From a virus, in IMG/VR virus record IMGVR_UViG_3300045988_011356: 5,753 nt of DNA. One strand, 5' to 3'. The position numbers were made by a program, and so were the translations under genes. The notes below the pieces were generated by a model, which was not told the DNA's origin, ran no database searches, and saw only the letters and a program-made list of their open reading frames with translations. Shown piece by piece: positions 1 through 5,753 of the stretch (the stretch's first letter is position 1; every line of letters begins with the position of its first letter).

Positions 1-95
1 ATTTTTTTTCGCGTACGTCTATATGCGTAAAGTTTGTGTATCTGATTACGCCGCCTTCTTCCATAATTTTGCTTGCGTATTCTGCTACCTCTTTG
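1..95. repeat. Terminal direct repeat, copy 1 (identical to 5659..5753); overlap of a circular genome with a 5658-nt unit length
   Basis: Base-by-base comparison shows 1..95 (attttttttcgcgtacg...ctacctctttg) equals 5659..5753. The repeat runs to both window ends and lies inside a coding sequence. Confidence 0.95.
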
Positions 96-367
96 CTTGT
101 GTGGTTTTTTACTACAATATCTGCTGCCATTCCTTTGCAATGGTATGAATTAGGCGCTCCGCCTATTTTGCTATTCCAGCTTGGTGTCCTGTATCCGCTG
201 TTAATTGTTACTGGTTCTTTGAAATGGTTTCGGATTGCTTCTAGTGTATCTATCAGTCTGTCTGCAATTAGGAATTCTTCACTTCCGTCTTTGCATTGAA
301 ATTCTTTTGTGCTGAAGTGTTCGCTTAGCTTTTTTGTTTTTGTATTCATTAGCCAAATCATTTTCAT
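1..367 (-). CDS. Zn-dependent peptidoglycan peptidase, Peptidase M15A / M15_3 (VanY/YcbK-like) family, putative endolysin. The window holds the N-terminal 122 codons; the ORF continues across the circular junction to the stop at 5644..5642 (127 aa in total)
   Basis: Hand translation of the minus strand from ATG 367..365 gives MKMIWLMNTKTKKLSEHFSTKEFQCKDGSEEFLIADRLIDTLEAIRNHFKEPVTINSGYRTPSWNSKIGGAPNSYHCKGMAADIVVKNHTSKEVAEYASKIMEEGGVIRYTNFTHIDVREKK, then YRKGV* across the junction. It carries the family pattern SxxFxxxEFxC, INSGYR, N..IGGA..S.H..G.AAD and a final HxD (predicted Zn ligands H76, D83, H115). A GGAAGGA Shine-Dalgarno lies 8 nt upstream of the ATG. The ORF is missing from the track because it has no stop inside the window. 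Confidence 0.9.
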   Translation of the reverse strand, partial: MKMIWLMNTKTKKLSEHFSTKEFQCKDGSEEFLIADRLIDTLEAIRNHFKEPVTINSGYRTPSWNSKIGGAPNSYHCKGMAADIVVKNHTSKEVAEYASKIMEEGGVIRYTNFTHIDVREKK

Positions 368-393
368 GGCGTTTTCCTTCCTTTCTTTGTTTA

Positions 394-422
394 ATTGTAT
401 TATATTTTTGAAAAAAAGTCAA
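394..422 (-). promoter_or_regulatory. Sigma70/sigmaA-type promoter candidate for the peptidase-first transcription unit
   Basis: Minus strand reads TTGACT (422..417), a 17-nt spacer, then TACAAT (399..394), with an overlapping TATAAT. An A/T-rich UP-like tract (attaaaattctaaaaaaa) lies just upstream. The -10 box is about 26 nt upstream of the peptidase ATG. Confidence 0.5.
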
Positions 423-553
423 GTTTTTTTAGAATTTTAATTGATATGTCAGTAGCCGGCTTTGCTCCTTTGTTTTGAATGGCGCTTTAGCGCCTTGCCG
501 TGCGTAGCGTATGCGGAGCTCGGCTAATCCGTTCCTTGTAAGCGCTGTGCGCG

Positions 554-720
554 TTTTCAACACTTTCAACACTTTCAACAGGTTTTCAACATAAAGTTGC
601 ACAATGATTTTAGTCATTTTGACGAACTTTCAACAATTCAACAAGTTTTCAACAAAACTTTCAACAGTGTTTTTTGCTTTTTATTTACGCTTTATCGTTA
701 AATTTTCGTACTTTTCAACT
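554..720. repeat. Iteron-like array: 8 exact TTCAACA heptamers plus 1 TTCAACT variant, all in the same orientation, in two clusters of four
   Basis: TTCAACA starts at 556, 565, 574 and 585 (spacing 9, 9, 11), and at 629, 637, 648 and 660 (spacing 8, 11, 12). TTCAACT starts at 714. The longer consensus is (A/T)CTTTCAACA, which reads TGTTGAAAG on the coding strand. I found no other exact copy elsewhere in the window by eye. Confidence 0.9.
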
Positions 721-766
721 TTTCTACTGCCTCTACTACTACTCCTACAACAAGTTATATATTATA

Positions 767-798
767 CGGCGCTTGTGAGCTTGCGAACAATAGCGCCG
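767..798. repeat. GC-rich inverted repeat (hairpin in ssDNA)
   Basis: CGGCGCT (767..773) pairs with AGCGCCG (792..798). An inner TTGT/ACAA pairing is possible if 2 nt are bulged. Confidence 0.7.
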
Positions 799-803
799 AA
801 GAG

Positions 804-847
804 CCGCGCGCGCGCGCGTGCGCGCTTCGCGCGCGCGCACGCGCGCG
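804..847. repeat. Alternating (CG)n tract containing a perfect 15-bp palindrome
   Basis: CGCGCGCGTGCGCGC (811..825) is the exact reverse complement of GCGCGCACGCGCGCG (833..847). The loop is ttcgcgc (826..832). The single T819/A839 pair fixes the register. Purine-pyrimidine alternation runs 805..825 and 828..847. Confidence 0.95.
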
Positions 848-902
848 ATAAAGTATAGCTATTTGATAGACTGAATAGTTTGATACATGGAGTCTTTAGA
901 CG

Positions 903-938
903 ACAAAAGCCAAGTACCTTACTTGATAGGTACTTGGC
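903..938 (-). terminator. Rho-independent terminator downstream of VP4
   Basis: Minus strand reads GCCAAGTACCT-atcaagta-AGGTACTTGGC (11-bp stem, 8-nt loop; 938..909) followed directly by TTTTGT. It starts 21 nt after the VP4 stop. There is no T-run on the plus-strand side. Confidence 0.65.
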
Positions 939-958
939 TAGGTGACACTATGACACTG

Positions 959-1978
959 TTAAAGTGTCCCTCTCTTCTTTATCTGCTTCTTTATTACTCT
1001 CTCTTTCGTTTTACACTGTTCTGCAAAGTCTGCGTTTTCGTACTTTAGTCGGTTTTCTGCGATCGCCGCTGCTTGTCTGTTCTGTTTAATTCTCCACAAT
1101 CTTTGTGGGTTTTCAGCTTCCATCATTTTTTCATAATAGCGCGGAATTTGTGCGTGTTTGCCGTTTGTGCATTGGATATAGCCTTGTCTCCAGATCTCTT
1201 TTTTGTGTTCTTGGTAATAGTGATCTCCTAAGCCTGGTTTAAGACTCATGCATGCAAAAGGTTTTTGTTGCCCTAGTTCGTAGTATGCGTTTGCTTTCTG
1301 ACCGTTAATTTCGTACATCTTTTTCGTTACGTACCCTGCAACATATCTATAGGTTTCCGGCACTGCTTGTGCTATCTGTATTTGACCCATTCCCCATAGG
1401 TTTGTAAGCCATTTACTTGTGAAATATCCGTTGTGTTGTATCTTGTATAGGTGCTCTAGGTCTGTTGGTCGCCATCCATACAGTATCATATGATAATGCG
1501 GTCTTGCTGTTTGTTCTCCGTATTCTCCCGCCACGAAATAGCGTAATTTGCCCCTGTAAGCCTTTCTGAGACGTTTTAAGAACTTTTGAACATCAGTATA
1601 CAGCAAAGTTTGGACGCTTTCAGGGCGTTTCTCTCCCGGTTTCCAGACGTATTGTACCTTTCGTATGATTTCACCTGTGTTTACTATCATGCCCGGTACG
1701 TGGTCATCATCATACGTTAATGTGATAAACCATACTTCTTCTCTTGGATAGTCTCGTGCTTCTAATTCTATTCGTGTTGTCCAGTCCTCTCTTTGTCTGA
1801 TTCTACATCCGATGCACTGCCCGCATGGTATTAACATGACATCTTTTCTATACATTACATCTTCATATTTGAGCTGTTTCCCGCTTATTTCAGAAAAGCG
1901 GGAAAGTGTATACACCCTCCCGCTGATGTCTTTATCGTTCGGGTTGTACAGCCTTATTAATGGCTTGTAACAACTCAT
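959..1978 (-). CDS. VP4: Replication initiation protein VP4 (HUH rolling-circle endonuclease, phiX174 gene A analogue)
   Basis: 339-aa ORF. It has the CGQCIGCR zinc-ribbon-like motif, FITLTYDD (RCR motif 1), PHYHMILYG (HUH motif 2) and YRYVAGYVTKK (catalytic Tyr motif 3). Its ATG overlaps the VP2 stop as ATGA. Confidence 0.93.
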   Translation of the reverse strand: MSCYKPLIRLYNPNDKDISGRVYTLSRFSEISGKQLKYEDVMYRKDVMLIPCGQCIGCRIRQREDWTTRIELEARDYPREEVWFITLTYDDDHVPGMIVNTGEIIRKVQYVWKPGEKRPESVQTLLYTDVQKFLKRLRKAYRGKLRYFVAGEYGEQTARPHYHMILYGWRPTDLEHLYKIQHNGYFTSKWLTNLWGMGQIQIAQAVPETYRYVAGYVTKKMYEINGQKANAYYELGQQKPFACMSLKPGLGDHYYQEHKKEIWRQGYIQCTNGKHAQIPRYYEKMMEAENPQRLWRIKQNRQAAAIAENRLKYENADFAEQCKTKERVIKKQIKKRGTL

Positions 1979-2838
1979 TTCAAATAATCACCCGGCTTCC
2001 TTTTTTCTCCGTAGTTTCCTGTTTTGTTTTGTGGTTTCATGCTTCTGCTCTGTTCTGCGCTTTTTTCTGTCTTTGCTGTTGCATCTTTTATGGCCTTGCT
2101 TGTGTCGTTTCCTACTTCTGTAAGCGCCTTTTGCAGTCCGTATGGCGTCATGTGCGTTGTGCTGAGCATTTGTTGCCAGCTTTGTGCGGCATTGTACCAG
2201 TCACTTTGACTCCAGCTTGTGCTTGAGTATGCATTTGGTACAAATCCACCGCTTCTGCTTACTCCTAGTGCGCTACTGCTTGCAAGTCCCATACTTGCGC
2301 CGCTGATTGTTCCTGCTGATCCGCCCGGTGTGCTTGCACCTCCGTTAGAAAATGCTAAAATCGGATTTAGGCCTGCTTTTTTCATATCTTCAACCGCACG
2401 CTGGTATGCCGTGCTTGACATGTGTTCTTGCCATTCACGGTTTGCTAGTGCTTCTGCACTGTTGTAGTTCATTGCTACGTTGTTTTCAATGTGGTTATAT
2501 ACGCCTTGCATGATTGCTTGTAAGGTGTTATAACCCATCTGTTTTAACATGCTTTGACTGTTATATTTACCTTGCATGGCAGCTTCTTGCCCTTGGTATG
2601 CGTATGCCTGTTTAAGCCAGTCGTTTACCTGCTGAATGTTTGTGCCTGCTTGACTTCCACTCTCTGAGTGTCCACCGCCCTGGCTTACGCTTCCGCCTTG
2701 ACTTTGGCTGTTGCCTTCTTGTCCGTACCCGCCAAAAGCTCCAGCAATGTTTTTTGTTGCTCCGGCGATTGTTCCAATTGTATTTGCCACGTTTCCTGCT
2801 ACGTTTAGTGCTGTTAAGAATCCTGATAATGCTCCCAT
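1975..2838 (-). CDS. VP2: Minor capsid / DNA pilot protein VP2 (phiX174 H analogue)
   Basis: 287-aa ORF with a Gly/Ala-rich hydrophobic N-terminus and a G/S/Q low-complexity linker. It carries the conserved-looking STAYQRAVEDMKKAGLNPILAF motif typical of gokushovirus VP2. It sits directly after VP1. Confidence 0.85.
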   Translation of the reverse strand: MGALSGFLTALNVAGNVANTIGTIAGATKNIAGAFGGYGQEGNSQSQGGSVSQGGGHSESGSQAGTNIQQVNDWLKQAYAYQGQEAAMQGKYNSQSMLKQMGYNTLQAIMQGVYNHIENNVAMNYNSAEALANREWQEHMSSTAYQRAVEDMKKAGLNPILAFSNGGASTPGGSAGTISGASMGLASSSALGVSRSGGFVPNAYSSTSWSQSDWYNAAQSWQQMLSTTHMTPYGLQKALTEVGNDTSKAIKDATAKTEKSAEQSRSMKPQNKTGNYGEKRKPGDYLK

Positions 2839-2840
2839 TT

Positions 2841-2865
2841 AAAAATTGCCCGGATTTCTCCGGGC
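2841..2865 (-). terminator. Terminator-like hairpin between VP1 and VP2; it also separates the VP2 Shine-Dalgarno from the VP2 start codon
   Basis: Minus strand reads TAA(VP1 stop)-GAAAGGAGGAA-GCCCGGA-GAAA-TCCGGGC-AATTTTTAA-ATG(VP2). The stem is 7 bp (2865..2848) with a GAAA loop, followed by a U5 run. Confidence 0.5.
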
Positions 2866-2876
2866 TTCCTCCTTTC

Positions 2877-4523
2877 TTACAGTTTGTACAAGCCAGGTAC
2901 GCTGTATAACGGCATACGTCTTGTGGTTTTGTTTGCTACGCGGATTGCACCGAAAAATTGTGGCTCGTTTTGCACGATAAGTGTGCGTGCAATTTCTGCT
3001 TTTCCTTCTTCCATCCAGTCTTGCGACAGTGTCGGTACGGTTGAATATTTGTCAGCATAATGCCAAAAATCCAGTGTTCCGGTTGCGTTGCTTCGCATTT
3101 TACTGGACACCCGGTTAGGCTTCATGCGATAGTCTGCCCATGCTTCTTGATATCCGAACGTTTCTTCGTCTGTTTCCTTGCCGGTGAGCATGATTTCTTT
3201 CTTTTTTACGGGCTGCTCGCCTAGGTTTGCGAACTGCGGTACGTAATAGTCAAGCCTGTCGGTTCTGCTCCAGAAACGTTCCAAACCTTGCTGATAACTG
3301 CGATTGTGTCGTACACAACATACACCGATGATAAATCCGTGCTCTTCAAAAGACTTTGTAAAGCTGCTTTCGTTGATTGGCGTTACTGACATTGCACCGG
3401 TTTCGCCTATGGGCGTGTCGTTATTTGTCTGCTGTCCGCTTGTTTGCACGATCTGATTGATATTGATGTGGTACCTGCCGCCGCCAAGGTATTCCGGCAC
3501 CTGTACGGTTTTATCGCTGATAACCACGTCCCACAGTGCTTGTACCTGTTCACGGTAACGGCTGCCACCTCTTGCAAGTGCTTCGTAGTACTGCTGTACT
3601 GCTACGGCTTTTCTTAGGTCGTTGATGGTTGCTGCGGTTACAGAACTGAGGTCAGTTCCCATATACCCCGCTTTATTGCTGCCCATTACCGTAGCTGGCT
3701 TTTTTCCGTCTATTGCCACTGTATTAAAAATTTCTCCGTTTGTACTTAATTCCACAGTATACGATTCCGGCTGCTCTTCATTTAGTTTGTCGTCTTTATA
3801 CAGTTTCACTGCCGCGTTTCCTTCCATCGGCAGTGACACAACCGGCCCACGCTGAGGATAAGGCAGACACGATGTGAAGTAGTCATGGAATTTATTTACG
3901 GGAAGGCATCTGCCGCCGGTAATTGCTTCCTTTAGAATTGCTTCAATTTTTTCATCGTTCTTGCTGTCTGCGTATGTTACGCTGCTATCGTCTTTTTTGA
4001 ATACTGCAGCGTTATCTATGTTTTCGTCTCTGAAAAATTCGTTCCAGATCATGACATATGCTCGAATTGGTAAGGCATTCACTGAAAAATTTGCTTCTAT
4101 TTTTGTTGGCACGCCCATATAGTCTAGGATGCTTCCTTCTGCTGGGCTTGGCGTTTTGGTTGCTGTGTTTCCCCCTACGATGTTAATTTGTGGTACATGA
4201 TAGTTTTTGGTCGGCATCCATGGCGTTTCCTCTACTTCTCCCATGAAGTATTTGAAGTTGTCCCATAGAATCCGGTTAGGACAATAGAAATAGTAGAAGT
4301 CAATGAATGCATCGTCAAAAACAGGATACTTCGGAGTTGTCATTCGAATGATTGCTGACGTGTCTACGTTGAAGGTATCGCCCGGTAATACCTCATCAAC
4401 ATAGAATGGAATCAGCTTGCCGGAATCGAATGTTGTTAAAATTGTCTGGTCACGGTTAAACCGTGTACGGCTCGCTTTCATTTCCGGAATCTGGTTAAAG
4501 TGCCGTTCATTGTTTCGATTCAC
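2877..4523 (-). CDS. VP1: Major capsid protein VP1 (phiX174 F analogue, gokushovirus type)
   Basis: 548-aa ORF. The N-terminal pattern HFNQIPE..SRTRFNRDQTILTTFDSGKLIPFYVDEVLPGDTF...FYCPNRILWDNF is characteristic of Microviridae VP1. The start is GTG (4523..4521), 7 nt after AGGAGG, and it overlaps the VP3 stop as GTGA. Confidence 0.96.
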   Translation of the reverse strand: MNRNNERHFNQIPEMKASRTRFNRDQTILTTFDSGKLIPFYVDEVLPGDTFNVDTSAIIRMTTPKYPVFDDAFIDFYYFYCPNRILWDNFKYFMGEVEETPWMPTKNYHVPQINIVGGNTATKTPSPAEGSILDYMGVPTKIEANFSVNALPIRAYVMIWNEFFRDENIDNAAVFKKDDSSVTYADSKNDEKIEAILKEAITGGRCLPVNKFHDYFTSCLPYPQRGPVVSLPMEGNAAVKLYKDDKLNEEQPESYTVELSTNGEIFNTVAIDGKKPATVMGSNKAGYMGTDLSSVTAATINDLRKAVAVQQYYEALARGGSRYREQVQALWDVVISDKTVQVPEYLGGGRYHININQIVQTSGQQTNNDTPIGETGAMSVTPINESSFTKSFEEHGFIIGVCCVRHNRSYQQGLERFWSRTDRLDYYVPQFANLGEQPVKKKEIMLTGKETDEETFGYQEAWADYRMKPNRVSSKMRSNATGTLDFWHYADKYSTVPTLSQDWMEEGKAEIARTLIVQNEPQFFGAIRVANKTTRRMPLYSVPGLYKL

Positions 4524-4930
4524 TTTTCTTCCTCCTTTGTTTTAGGTTCTGCTTCAGGTTCTGCTTTTGTTTTTTCCGCTGCCATTTTTTGCAGTTCTTC
4601 AAGTTTCATGGCGTTTGCTTGTGCGGTCGCTATCATGCGATGATACTCGTGAACGTTTTGCGGAAATTCGGTGATATCCACTTCTGTTCCGTTTAATGCG
4701 CCTTCTGACAAGCTTTTAAGATACTGCGGATCAAAACTTGCTTTTCTAACAATGTTTTTGATATCGCATTCATCCGCATAGCTTTCAATTTCTTGCTGGA
4801 TGTCGATTGGTGTTGTTTCCTGCAGCACTTCTTGTCCTTTTTCGTCTTTCGTCCATACGTATTGTTTTCGGAACTTTTCTCCTGATTTAGAAAAGAAGGG
4901 CTCTCGCCCTTCTTCATATCGTTTATTCAT
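4520..4930 (-). CDS. VP3: Internal scaffolding protein VP3
   Basis: I take the internal ATG at 4930 (MNKRYEEGREPFF...) as the start because GGGAGGGAAAG lies 4 nt upstream. The track start at 5050 has no comparable SD and sits inside the upstream gene. The pattern IDIQQEIESYADECDIKNIVRKA...DITEFPQNVHEYHRMIATAQ plus an acidic C-terminal tail fits gokushovirus VP3. The gene is directly upstream of VP1. Confidence 0.8.
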   Translation of the reverse strand: MNKRYEEGREPFFSKSGEKFRKQYVWTKDEKGQEVLQETTPIDIQQEIESYADECDIKNIVRKASFDPQYLKSLSEGALNGTEVDITEFPQNVHEYHRMIATAQANAMKLEELQKMAAEKTKAEPEAEPKTKEEEK

Positions 4931-5162
4931 GCGGCTTTCCCTCCCATACCTTTTCGGTGTCGTTCGTGAATGTACCGGTTTCGTCTTCGAACACTGCCAA
5001 TTTGAAGCCAGTATAGTCGCCCGGCGCCTGTCCGATGAAAGTTTTTTCATCTTTTTCCATTACGTTGCACATCCGTGCAAACGTTGCATTGTTTTTGCTT
5101 TCACCTACCCATGCATAGCTTTTTGCCACTTCGTCCCATACACCATAATAATTGTGTTTCAT
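4923..5162 (-). CDS. Small non-structural protein, VP5-like (tentative family call)
   Basis: 79-aa ORF with an AAAGGAAAA SD-like element upstream. It overlaps the VP3 start by 8 nt. Its size, its position before VP3, and the pattern Y.VWDEVAKSY....NNATFARM....PGDY..FKLAVFEDETGTF resemble the gokushovirus ORF5/VP5 family as I recall it. Confidence 0.6.
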   Translation of the reverse strand: MKHNYYGVWDEVAKSYAWVGESKNNATFARMCNVMEKDEKTFIGQAPGDYTGFKLAVFEDETGTFTNDTEKVWEGKPHE

Positions 5163-5179
5163 TGTTGTTTTCCTTTCTT

Positions 5180-5302
5180 TTACAGGCGGATGCCGCCGCG
5201 CATAGGTTTCTGGCTGAGGTTGATGGTTTTGGTTTTGCGTGCGGTTACGTTAAACATTCGGCGGTCTTTTGCGCCGTTCATTGTCTTACGATGTCGTGCC
5301 AT
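5180..5302 (-). CDS. Small basic DNA-binding/packaging protein (gokushovirus ORF8/VP8-like, phiX174 J analogue)
   Basis: Hand translation gives MARHRKTMNGAKDRRMFNVTARKTKTINLSQKPMRGGIRL* (40 aa). 12 of the 40 residues are Arg or Lys, plus one His. The PMRGGIRL C-terminus is like chlamydiaphage ORF8. GAAGGGAG lies 7 nt before the ATG. The ORF is below the track size cutoff and overlaps the upstream ORF by 17 nt. Confidence 0.75.
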   Translation of the reverse strand: MARHRKTMNGAKDRRMFNVTARKTKTINLSQKPMRGGIRL

Positions 5303-5513
5303 TAGTGTACTCCCTTCGCATTAGTTCTAATTCGATGTCGCTTACAAAGCTTTTCATTTGCCAAATTTCATTTACTAGTCTATTAGCGTCCTCGATTTTT
5401 GTCACTTTTTTAAGCATTTTGTAATTGCTATCGATTTCTTTGTATTTTCGTTCGAGTAGAATTTCCAGTTCTTCTTTGGCCTGGTCTCTTACGTTCCATG
5501 CTTTATGCATCAT
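5286..5513 (-). CDS. Hypothetical protein, 75 aa, highly charged, predicted helical/coiled-coil
   Basis: ORF on the coding strand with a strong AAAGGAGT SD 5 nt before ATGATG. It sits 3 nt after the upstream ORF. I recognise no family. Confidence 0.6.
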   Translation of the reverse strand: MMHKAWNVRDQAKEELEILLERKYKEIDSNYKMLKKVTKIEDANRLVNEIWQMKSFVSDIELELMRREYTNGTTS

Positions 5514-5516
5514 GGT

Positions 5517-5639
5517 TTACTCCTTTTCATTTTCGACGGTGCTATCGTGCAGTGCATGATAGATTTCGTCAAGCTTCTCTAGAATCTGCATCATGATGCG
5601 GATAGCCTGCTTGACGTCTTTAATGGAAATAAGCGCCAT
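5517..5639 (-). CDS. Hypothetical small protein, 40 aa
   Basis: Hand translation gives MALISIKDVKQAIRIMMQILEKLDEIYHALHDSTVENEKE*. GGGGGTG lies 5 nt before the ATG, and the ATG is 2 nt after the peptidase stop. The next gene starts 3 nt after its stop. It is below the track cutoff. Confidence 0.45.
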   Translation of the reverse strand: MALISIKDVKQAIRIMMQILEKLDEIYHALHDSTVENEKE

Positions 5640-5641
5640 TT

Positions 5642-5753
5642 TTACACCCCCTTTCTATATTTTTTTTCGCGTACGTCTATATGCGTAAAGTTTGTGTATC
5701 TGATTACGCCGCCTTCTTCCATAATTTTGCTTGCGTATTCTGCTACCTCTTTG
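5642..5753 (-). CDS. 3' end of the same M15 peptidase gene, containing the true stop codon; 5659..5753 duplicates 1..95
   Basis: Minus strand reads ...THIDVREKKYRKGV-TAA with the stop at 5644..5642. The reading frame is continuous with 1..367 once the 95-nt overlap is collapsed: 367 + 17 nt = 128 codons. Confidence 0.9.
   Translation of the reverse strand, partial: KEVAEYASKIMEEGGVIRYTNFTHIDVREKKYRKGV
5659..5753. repeat. Terminal direct repeat, copy 2 (identical to 1..95)
   Basis: See copy 1. Confidence 0.95.

Follow-up and report, generated by a model that had tools for sequence, protein, structure and literature searches.

A zinc peptidase gene of the M15 type across the ends of a human-gut gokushovirus genome: a probable accessory endolysin with neither an export signal nor a holin partner detected in the genome

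The window studied here, a stretch of viral DNA of 5,753 nucleotides (nt; IMG/VR record IMGVR_UViG_3300045988_011356) that, to judge from its terminal repeat and gene content, is a complete human-gut gokushovirus genome, carries a gene for a 127-residue peptidase of the M15 type that is split by the two ends of the linear sequence. As judged from family and fold, the gene encodes a single-domain, cytoplasmically made zinc metallopeptidase of the LAS type, and we put at roughly 60% the probability that this enzyme is an accessory endolysin acting on mature peptidoglycan after the membrane has been breached. When the sequence is translated as a circle, the open reading frame (ORF) begins with an ATG at positions 367-365, runs on the minus strand through position 1, and goes on to 5658-5642, where the protein ends in ...REKKYRKGV. 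The part at 1..367 (minus strand) comprises codons 1-122 and the first base of codon 123 and holds H76, D83, H115, and D117; the 3' end of the gene lies in 5642..5753 (minus strand), in which 5659-5753 duplicate positions 1-95, 5658-5645 complete YRKGV, and 5644-5642 are the TAA stop codon. The terminal repeat (1-95 = 5659-5753; 95 nt, 100% identical) indicates that the genome unit is a 5,658-nt circle written with an overlap. In four independent human-gut assemblies that are 99.97-100% identical to the window (L095-L098; e.g., ERR688590 of PRJEB7774), the peptidase ORF lies inside the contig and encodes a protein identical to that of the window; because the ORF is uninterrupted in these assemblies, the junction is the place at which the circle was cut and not an assembly artifact.

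The predicted protein matches the Pfam profile Peptidase_M15_3 (PF08291), a member of the LAS-enzyme clan Peptidase_MD, over profile positions 2-108 of 108 with a score of 86.9 bits (cut-off 23.2, E 1.2e-24) and PHROG 894, labeled "endolysin," with an E of 2.4e-39; there is a weaker Pfam match to Peptidase_M15_2/DUF882 (PF05951, E 5.1e-08). The motifs S74-Y75-H76, A81-A82-D83, and H115-I116-D117 are all present, and R60, S74, H76, D83, N112, H115, D117, and R119 are invariant among 49 homologues with 66-95% identity, the SxH, AAD, and HxD motifs being kept likewise in the homologues from double-stranded DNA (dsDNA) phages and bacteria. The protein thus has a motif of the SxHxxGxAxD type together with a C-terminal His, the third metal ligand being H115 or D117, and H76 and D83 align with His 154 and Asp 161 of the Protein Data Bank (PDB) entry 1LBU, which we take to be two of the zinc ligands of that enzyme. 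The only residue change found to distinguish the microviral clade is in the C-terminal tail, which reads KYRKGV instead of KARW.

An AlphaFold2 model built from the 49 homologues (mean pLDDT 85.9, pTM 0.81) has the central antiparallel sheet and flanking helices of the LAS fold, and a Foldseek comparison with the PDB placed 1LBU first, followed by Hedgehog N-domains, Ply500, VanY/VanXY, ChiX, and LdcB. Phage and microvirus peptidases head the matches among the predicted viral structures in BFVD (TM-scores of 0.88-0.95). A profile search of PDB sequences found nothing besides 1LBU, the zinc D-Ala-D-Ala carboxypeptidase of Streptomyces albus G (MEROPS M15A; sequence E 5.6e-06, fold E 4.1e-04). 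The two enzymes are 27% identical over 88 aligned columns; 1LBU, which is secreted by its bacterium, has an additional domain at the N terminus, and its bond specificity is not transferable to the window peptidase. A related domain is also present in the L,D-endopeptidase MepK of E. coli (YcbK; DUF882, Peptidase_M15_2), and the score of the window peptidase against the NCBIfam equivalog for MepK (NF053624; E 3e-12, 46.8 bits) is far under the cut-off of 185; MepK carries a signal for export to the periplasm, whereas the window peptidase has none. In a preliminary description of this DNA, made from the letters alone, a 127-residue Peptidase_M15_3-type gene across the junction had been proposed, with an intact H-D-H set of zinc motifs (SYH, AAD, HID) and with profile searches and structure prediction suggested as checks. 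The exact protein is confirmed by the independent assemblies, having been left off the ORF list only because it runs past the window end, and the full-length profile match, the invariance of the key residues, and the predicted LAS-type zinc peptidase fold with 1LBU as its top PDB match all bear the assignment out. Neither of the sequence outcomes that would have overturned it, a missing M15 profile match or lost zinc ligands, was observed.

On sequence grounds, the enzyme module is the same as the endolysin of dsDNA phages and of Oscillospiraceae prophages. The tblastn matches annotated as endolysins come from Vibrio, Proteus, and Faecalibacterium phages, and the endolysins of Vibrio phage D478 and Faecalibacterium phage FP_Toutatis are 42-43% identical to the window peptidase over nearly the full length, with the same size class and the same motifs. 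Homologues on three IMG/VR contigs of dsDNA phages (L044-L046) adjoin small transmembrane (TM) ORFs that resemble holins or spanins; to go by these contigs, rather than by D478 or FP_Toutatis, the PHROG 894 genes of dsDNA phages are typically flanked by TM ORFs, and the window has no such ORF. The nearest cellular homologues (54-57% identity) belong to Oscillospiraceae and other Clostridia. Those of a Dysosmobacter metagenome-assembled genome (CAKUBJ010000023) and of Oscillibacter sp. 1-3 (NZ_KE159712), 56% identical over residues 11-122, are multidomain proteins of 321-338 residues with the M15 domain at the C terminus and, upstream, a holin-like ORF that has one TM span or two, whereas the microviral protein consists of the catalytic domain alone. 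One distant homologue among those of the dsDNA phage contigs (L048) carries an N-terminal signal anchor.

The gene class, the virus group, and the exact protein are already public, and the endolysin hypothesis is 14 years old. Roux et al. (2012) described M15_3 peptidases from human samples, in 5 members of the Gokushovirinae and 6 of the Alpavirinae; they showed their horizontal acquisition, noted their affinity to Faecalibacterium genes and the presence of homologues in holin-endolysin cassettes, contrasted them with protein E of phiX174, and proposed that the microviral peptidase is an endolysin dissolving the wall at the end of infection (PMC3394797). Kirchberger et al. treat peptidases as a recurrent lysis-associated accessory gene of microviruses (PMC7062461, PMC9239249), conserved in position in several microvirus families and sometimes recombined between distant ones (Kirchberger et al., 2022; PMC9239249), and an M15 peptidase is also found in cultured marine and rhizobial microviruses and in the four-gene phage vB_RpoMi-Mini (PMC9865509, PMC11499846). 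GenBank relatives of the window are annotated with "peptidase M15" or "similar to peptidase," and nr has an entry "endolysin [Microvirus sp.]." A large protein collection contains 629 homologues; among the matches listed (120 of 629), the proteins are 125-162 residues long (most of them 127), all have both M15 domains, many come from 5.5-6 kb contigs, and the exact window sequence is among them. The wider domain family comprises 12,523 clusters at 50% identity (E up to 0.001). The phrase "rare rather than unprecedented," applied earlier to such genes in metagenomic microviruses, is thus an understatement, "rare" being incorrect for this clade, and M15 peptidases being the best-documented accessory gene of gut microviruses, the gene by itself adds little. 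The peptidases of other gut Gokushovirinae (KX513868, protein ARQ16010.1; KT264792; MG945781) are, like that of the window, single-domain proteins of about 127-130 residues; they are 48-65% identical to it and differ from it by allele. In KX513868, MG945781, KT264792, and others checked, the gene order is that of the window (i.e., VP4, intergenic region, peptidase, small ORFs, VP5, VP3, VP1, and VP2).

How a wall hydrolase of this kind would leave the cytoplasm is the main question that the gene raises. The N terminus of the peptidase, MKMIWLMNTKTKKLSEHF, has no hydrophobic core, and residues 4-8 are modeled as a beta-strand of the fold. With a TM threshold set at a 19-residue Kyte-Doolittle mean of 1.6, neither a signal peptide nor a SAR domain was found in the peptidase, in which the maximum mean is 0.43. 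When the same threshold was applied to all coding-strand ORFs of at least 25 residues in three frames with wrap-around, no ORF of the window reached it, the maximum of 1.14 being found in the Gly/Ala-rich N terminus of the pilot protein VP2 (2725-2838, minus strand). Nor was a conserved TM ORF found when the scan took in 43 related microvirus genomes, of which 41 came from IMG/VR and 2 from GenBank: only eight coding-strand ORFs, in seven genomes, reach the threshold, six of them representing one alternative frame within VP1 and the other two being intergenic, and the VP1-embedded ORF has a mean of 0.99 in the window, below the threshold. A hidden holin on the coding strand was rejected, since none is conserved across the window and the 43 relatives. 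The earlier statements that the N terminus is not a signal peptide and that the coding strand has no classical TM span apart from the VP2 N terminus both hold, with the VP2 segment itself peaking at 1.14.

The window accordingly contains neither a holin with at least one TM span encoded alongside the peptidase, as in a holin-endolysin cassette, nor, in any coding-strand frame, a short TM-grade peptide of the E type, which is usually overprinted. Protein E of phiX174, an inhibitor of MraY, is a TM peptide of this sort, overprinted in gene D. What the window shares with phiX174 and its E protein, and with the "amurins," is a small single-stranded DNA phage that must lyse its host with no holin-endolysin pair; it differs in having no TM ORF and in that its candidate is a soluble, horizontally acquired hydrolase.

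Comparison with related genomes indicates that the peptidase is an exchangeable accessory cassette, dispensable for the lineage. The nearest GenBank record, KX513868 ("Human gut gokushovirus"; 84% DNA identity across 92% of the genome), is 84-90% identical to the window in DNA over 459-5672 (5672 being position 14) and has zero DNA similarity to it over 15-458 (L001, 1509-2371), and its peptidase is 48% identical. The region 15-458 consists of the peptidase body, the promoter-like site, and the ribosome-binding site, and the swap has its breakpoints roughly 90 nt 5' of the start codon and, at the other end, some 30 nt short of the stop codon. Peptidase identity to the window is 65-76% in genomes whose capsids are more distant, compared with 48% in the closest genome, which argues for a cassette swap. 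L029 shares the length and repeat size of the window but is a different genome, with a peptidase that is 65% identical. Furthermore, no peptidase was detected by tblastn (E up to 0.1) in the complete circular genomes MG945157, KT264799, MG945135, KT264798, and MG945138 or in the partial genome MG945657, and in these relatives the slot behind VP4 is taken up by other small ORFs. Because the cassette can be swapped and is absent from complete relatives, the core lysis function must lie elsewhere.

Two further records concern the same gene. In MT135277.1 (L051), a "complete genome" record in which the gene is unannotated, the peptidase matches at 1-305 and 5444-5565 fall in two or three frames, which points to a frameshift (i.e., a sequencing error or a decaying copy). 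The microvirus contig CAVKUS010000079.1 (L054) is of complete length at 5,739 nt and encodes a peptidase that is 69% identical. It was assigned to the metagenome-assembled genome "Bacteroides sp. CAG:545," which probably reflects a binning artifact rather than the host.

The signals upstream of the gene are consistent with expression at the head of a transcription unit. As read from the sequence, a Shine-Dalgarno site, AGGAAGGA, lies at 374-381 (minus strand), 6 nt 5' of the peptidase ATG, and a sigma-70-like promoter match (TTGACT, a 17-nt spacer, and TACAAT; 10/12) lies at 394-422 (minus strand), 27 nt 5' of the peptidase start. A terminator-like hairpin at 908-939 (minus strand), with a 12-bp stem followed by a T-run, stands directly 3' of the stop codon of VP4; this hairpin would close the VP4 unit and so make the peptidase the first gene of the next one. 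The promoter and terminator calls are consensus matches only, and the 12 promoter-like sites of the window, compared with 9.2 expected from shuffles, represent no enrichment. The earlier placement of the peptidase as the first gene after a predicted promoter agrees with the match at 422-394 at this consensus level.

We infer that the first cistron behind the promoter-like site would yield the peptidase in the cytoplasm, that a membrane lesion caused by another factor, probably a core gokushovirus function, would let the enzyme reach the wall, and that it would then cut peptide stems or cross-links of the host peptidoglycan at the end of infection. It would in this way be an add-on to the core lysis function, speeding or completing wall breakdown. 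The absence of an export signal from the protein and of a holin from the genome implies that the wall would be reached through a lesion made by something else; as related phages manage without the peptidase, and as gokushoviruses in general have, to our knowledge, no known lysis gene, the breach is probably a core function.

Several points weigh against an accessory endolysin. In the literature searched, we found neither a biochemical or genetic test of any gokushovirus peptidase nor a discussion of how microviral peptidases are exported. For a cytoplasmic endolysin that lacks a holin, a signal peptide, and a SAR domain, no way of reaching the wall has been demonstrated, and the core membrane-breaching function is itself postulated. 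Given that the relatives lacking the peptidase make it a dispensable enzyme, its contribution to lysis could be small. Finally, the evidence on the host provided by the Oscillospiraceae and Clostridia homologues is indirect. The prophage endolysins of Oscillospiraceae, as the nearest cellular relatives, suggest this host group, and most genes of the window are preceded by Shine-Dalgarno sites of the GGAGG type, as read from the sequence; Bacteroidota largely lack such sites, which would thus fit a host among the Bacillota or Proteobacteria better than one among the Bacteroidota. A wall hydrolase with no signal in a phage with no membrane protein is a puzzle common to many microviruses, cultured ones included, and resolving the export step would define how gokushoviruses, an abundant group in the human gut, lyse their hosts.

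The lesion may instead be the work of an unconventional membrane-permeabilizing partner that the scan missed, in which case the peptidase would be one part of a disguised two-component lysis system; we regard this as unlikely. Conceivable partners are a small overprinted or antisense ORF, the VP2 N terminus acting as a late pore, and two small ORFs downstream of the peptidase acting as export helpers, o40a (40 residues, 5639-5517, minus strand; a conserved acidic ORF with an amphipathic helix) and o75 (75 residues, 5513-5286, minus strand; a conserved helical, charged ORF with no TM span). The model for the helper idea is Gp1 of mycobacteriophage Ms6, an export chaperone. That o40a begins only 2 nt past the peptidase stop codon and is present in 38 of the 43 relatives speaks for such a role, as far as VP2 is concerned its N terminus is the most hydrophobic coding-strand segment, an 87-residue hydrophobic ORF lies antisense to the peptidase (36-299), and the alternative-frame ORF of VP1 has a TM-grade segment in 6 of the 43 relatives.

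These candidates fare less well on closer comparison. With a net charge of about -4, o40a is acidic and has no TM span, and in four relatives that lack the peptidase it keeps 64-75% identity, compared with only about 47% for VP1 (i.e., it is more conserved than the capsid protein); o75 likewise occurs independently of the peptidase, being present in the peptidase-less genomes L052 and L094. Both were rejected as peptidase-specific partners for this reason, and o40a is, from these comparisons, a backbone gene. Neither ORF has an above-threshold match in Pfam, a match in NCBIfam, or an informative match in PHROG, and o40a is unannotated in nearly all GenBank relatives. Across 44 genomes, the open antisense and alternative-frame stretches over the peptidase are not maintained, their length ranging from 18 to 142 codons, so an overprinted or antisense gene over the peptidase was rejected. 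As the complementary strand is T-rich, hydrophobic antisense ORFs arise by composition opposite every gene, and the VP1-embedded ORF, at 0.99, is not hydrophobic in the window.

An enzyme carried in or on the particle would need no export signal, and the peptidase could act at entry as a virion-associated or co-delivered enzyme that opens the peptidoglycan for the DNA-delivery tube formed by VP2. Virion-associated peptidoglycan hydrolases are common in tailed phages, and the BFVD matches include M15 domains within phage proteins of 800-1,190 residues. The closest relatives of the window peptidase are, however, stand-alone or C-terminal endolysin domains in lysis cassettes, the peptidase has no link to the capsid and is fused to none of VP1, VP2, and VP3, and the gene is absent from complete relatives, which must still enter cells. 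A role in entry is, in our judgment, quite improbable.

We give slightly less credence still to trimming or cleavage of the precursor stem peptide inside the cytoplasm (in UDP-MurNAc-pentapeptide or in lipid II at the inner face of the membrane), upon which cross-linking would fail and lysis would come about with no need for export. Such an "enzymatic amurin" would be a counterpart of the precursor-pathway proteins of phiX174, Q-beta, and M, would suit the habit of small phages of blocking wall synthesis, and would explain why neither a holin nor a signal peptide is found; moreover, the only solved relative detectable by sequence, 1LBU, is a muramoyl-pentapeptide DD-carboxypeptidase, and the clan includes VanX, VanY, and VanXY, which act on peptidoglycan precursors. 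Against this stands the 40-57% identity to the endolysin domains encoded in holin cassettes of dsDNA phages and prophages. Endolysins of such cassettes accumulate in the cytoplasm with no premature lysis, which implies that the same specificity would be harmless there, and no residue change distinguishing the microviral clade was found outside its C-terminal tail.

Finally, that the gene is a mere passenger, recently acquired by horizontal transfer and either tolerated but unused or decaying, is most improbable: although it is dispensable for the lineage and sits in a variable accessory slot, none of its catalytic and substrate-site residues varies among 49 homologues, the 629 homologues include no listed match (of 120) that departs from 125-162 residues or lacks either M15 domain, it has a good Shine-Dalgarno site and stands first after the promoter-like site, and in composition it is similar to the remainder of the genome (GC 38% versus 43%, and A-rich as the other genes are).

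The remainder of the window is that of a typical member of the Gokushovirinae, which we recognized by the five proteins VP1-VP5, a circular genome of roughly 4.5-6 kb, and a single coding strand. All five proteins are present (VP1 as Phage_F, VP2 as pilot protein, VP3 as Chlamy_scaf, VP4 as Rep, and VP5), and the minus strand carries every recognizable gene. Following the minus strand from the peptidase and the adjoining o40a and o75, there is a 40-residue Arg/Lys-rich ORF at 5302-5180 (PHROG 10695), then VP5 at 5162-4923 (PF20577), the scaffold protein VP3 at about 4930-4520 (PF09675), the capsid protein VP1 at 4523-2877 (PF02305, E 7.3e-133), the pilot protein VP2 at 2838-1975 (PHROG 8742, E 5.4e-127), and the replication initiator VP4 at 1978-959 (PF23343), which is separated from the peptidase by the intergenic region of 590 nt (958-368).

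This intergenic region contains, at 550-676, several copies of a repeat of about 9 nt, which reads TTTCAACA on the plus strand and TGTTGAAA on the coding strand. In the distant relatives L052, L090, and L092, the repeat surfaces as spurious ORFs of the "VENLLK" type, which indicates that the DNA element itself is conserved; it may be iteron-like and tied to the replication origin. The adjoining segment at 480-535 is apparently conserved too. A nearly pure alternating CG inverted repeat with 15-nt arms of 100% complementarity is found at 805-847. As a significant structure this hairpin was rejected: its folding energy as single-stranded DNA is -34.6 kcal/mol, and its z-score relative to shuffles is only -1.7, owing to the high GC content of the segment. 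For the intergenic region, Rfam gave only sub-threshold snoRNA noise, and a structured RNA was rejected as well.

In two of the relatives with no peptidase, the slot after VP4 is occupied by a small conserved TM ORF of the form MLITxxNYPWNDIFxIILMLIxLWIxC (1099-1275 in L052, MG945657, and 1174-1257 in L094, MG945138). This ORF was rejected as the membrane partner of the window peptidase, since neither the window nor any of the 44 peptidase-bearing genomes examined has it. As a candidate for an alternative lysis gene in L052 and L094, it hints, in this tiny sample of two genomes, at alternative lysis modules.

The gap between the VP1 stop codon and the VP2 start codon (2839-2876) holds a GC-rich hairpin, GCCCGGAGAAATCCGGGC, at 2848-2865, and a strong Shine-Dalgarno-like sequence, AAAGGAGGAAG, on the side of the hairpin that is far from the VP2 ATG. 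There is no Shine-Dalgarno-like site close to the VP2 ATG itself, and the hairpin additionally scored as terminator-like; it could work as an attenuator or draw the Shine-Dalgarno site toward the start codon of VP2. An unusually long ORF of 174 residues lies on the plus strand at 4800-5324, antisense to VP3, VP5, and the 40-residue basic ORF. Hydrophobic antisense ORFs are present opposite VP5 in 30 of 44 related genomes, those listed being about 130-190 residues long and alike in sequence, and the antisense ORF opposite VP5 is probably a by-product of the constraint on the sense frame together with the T-rich composition.

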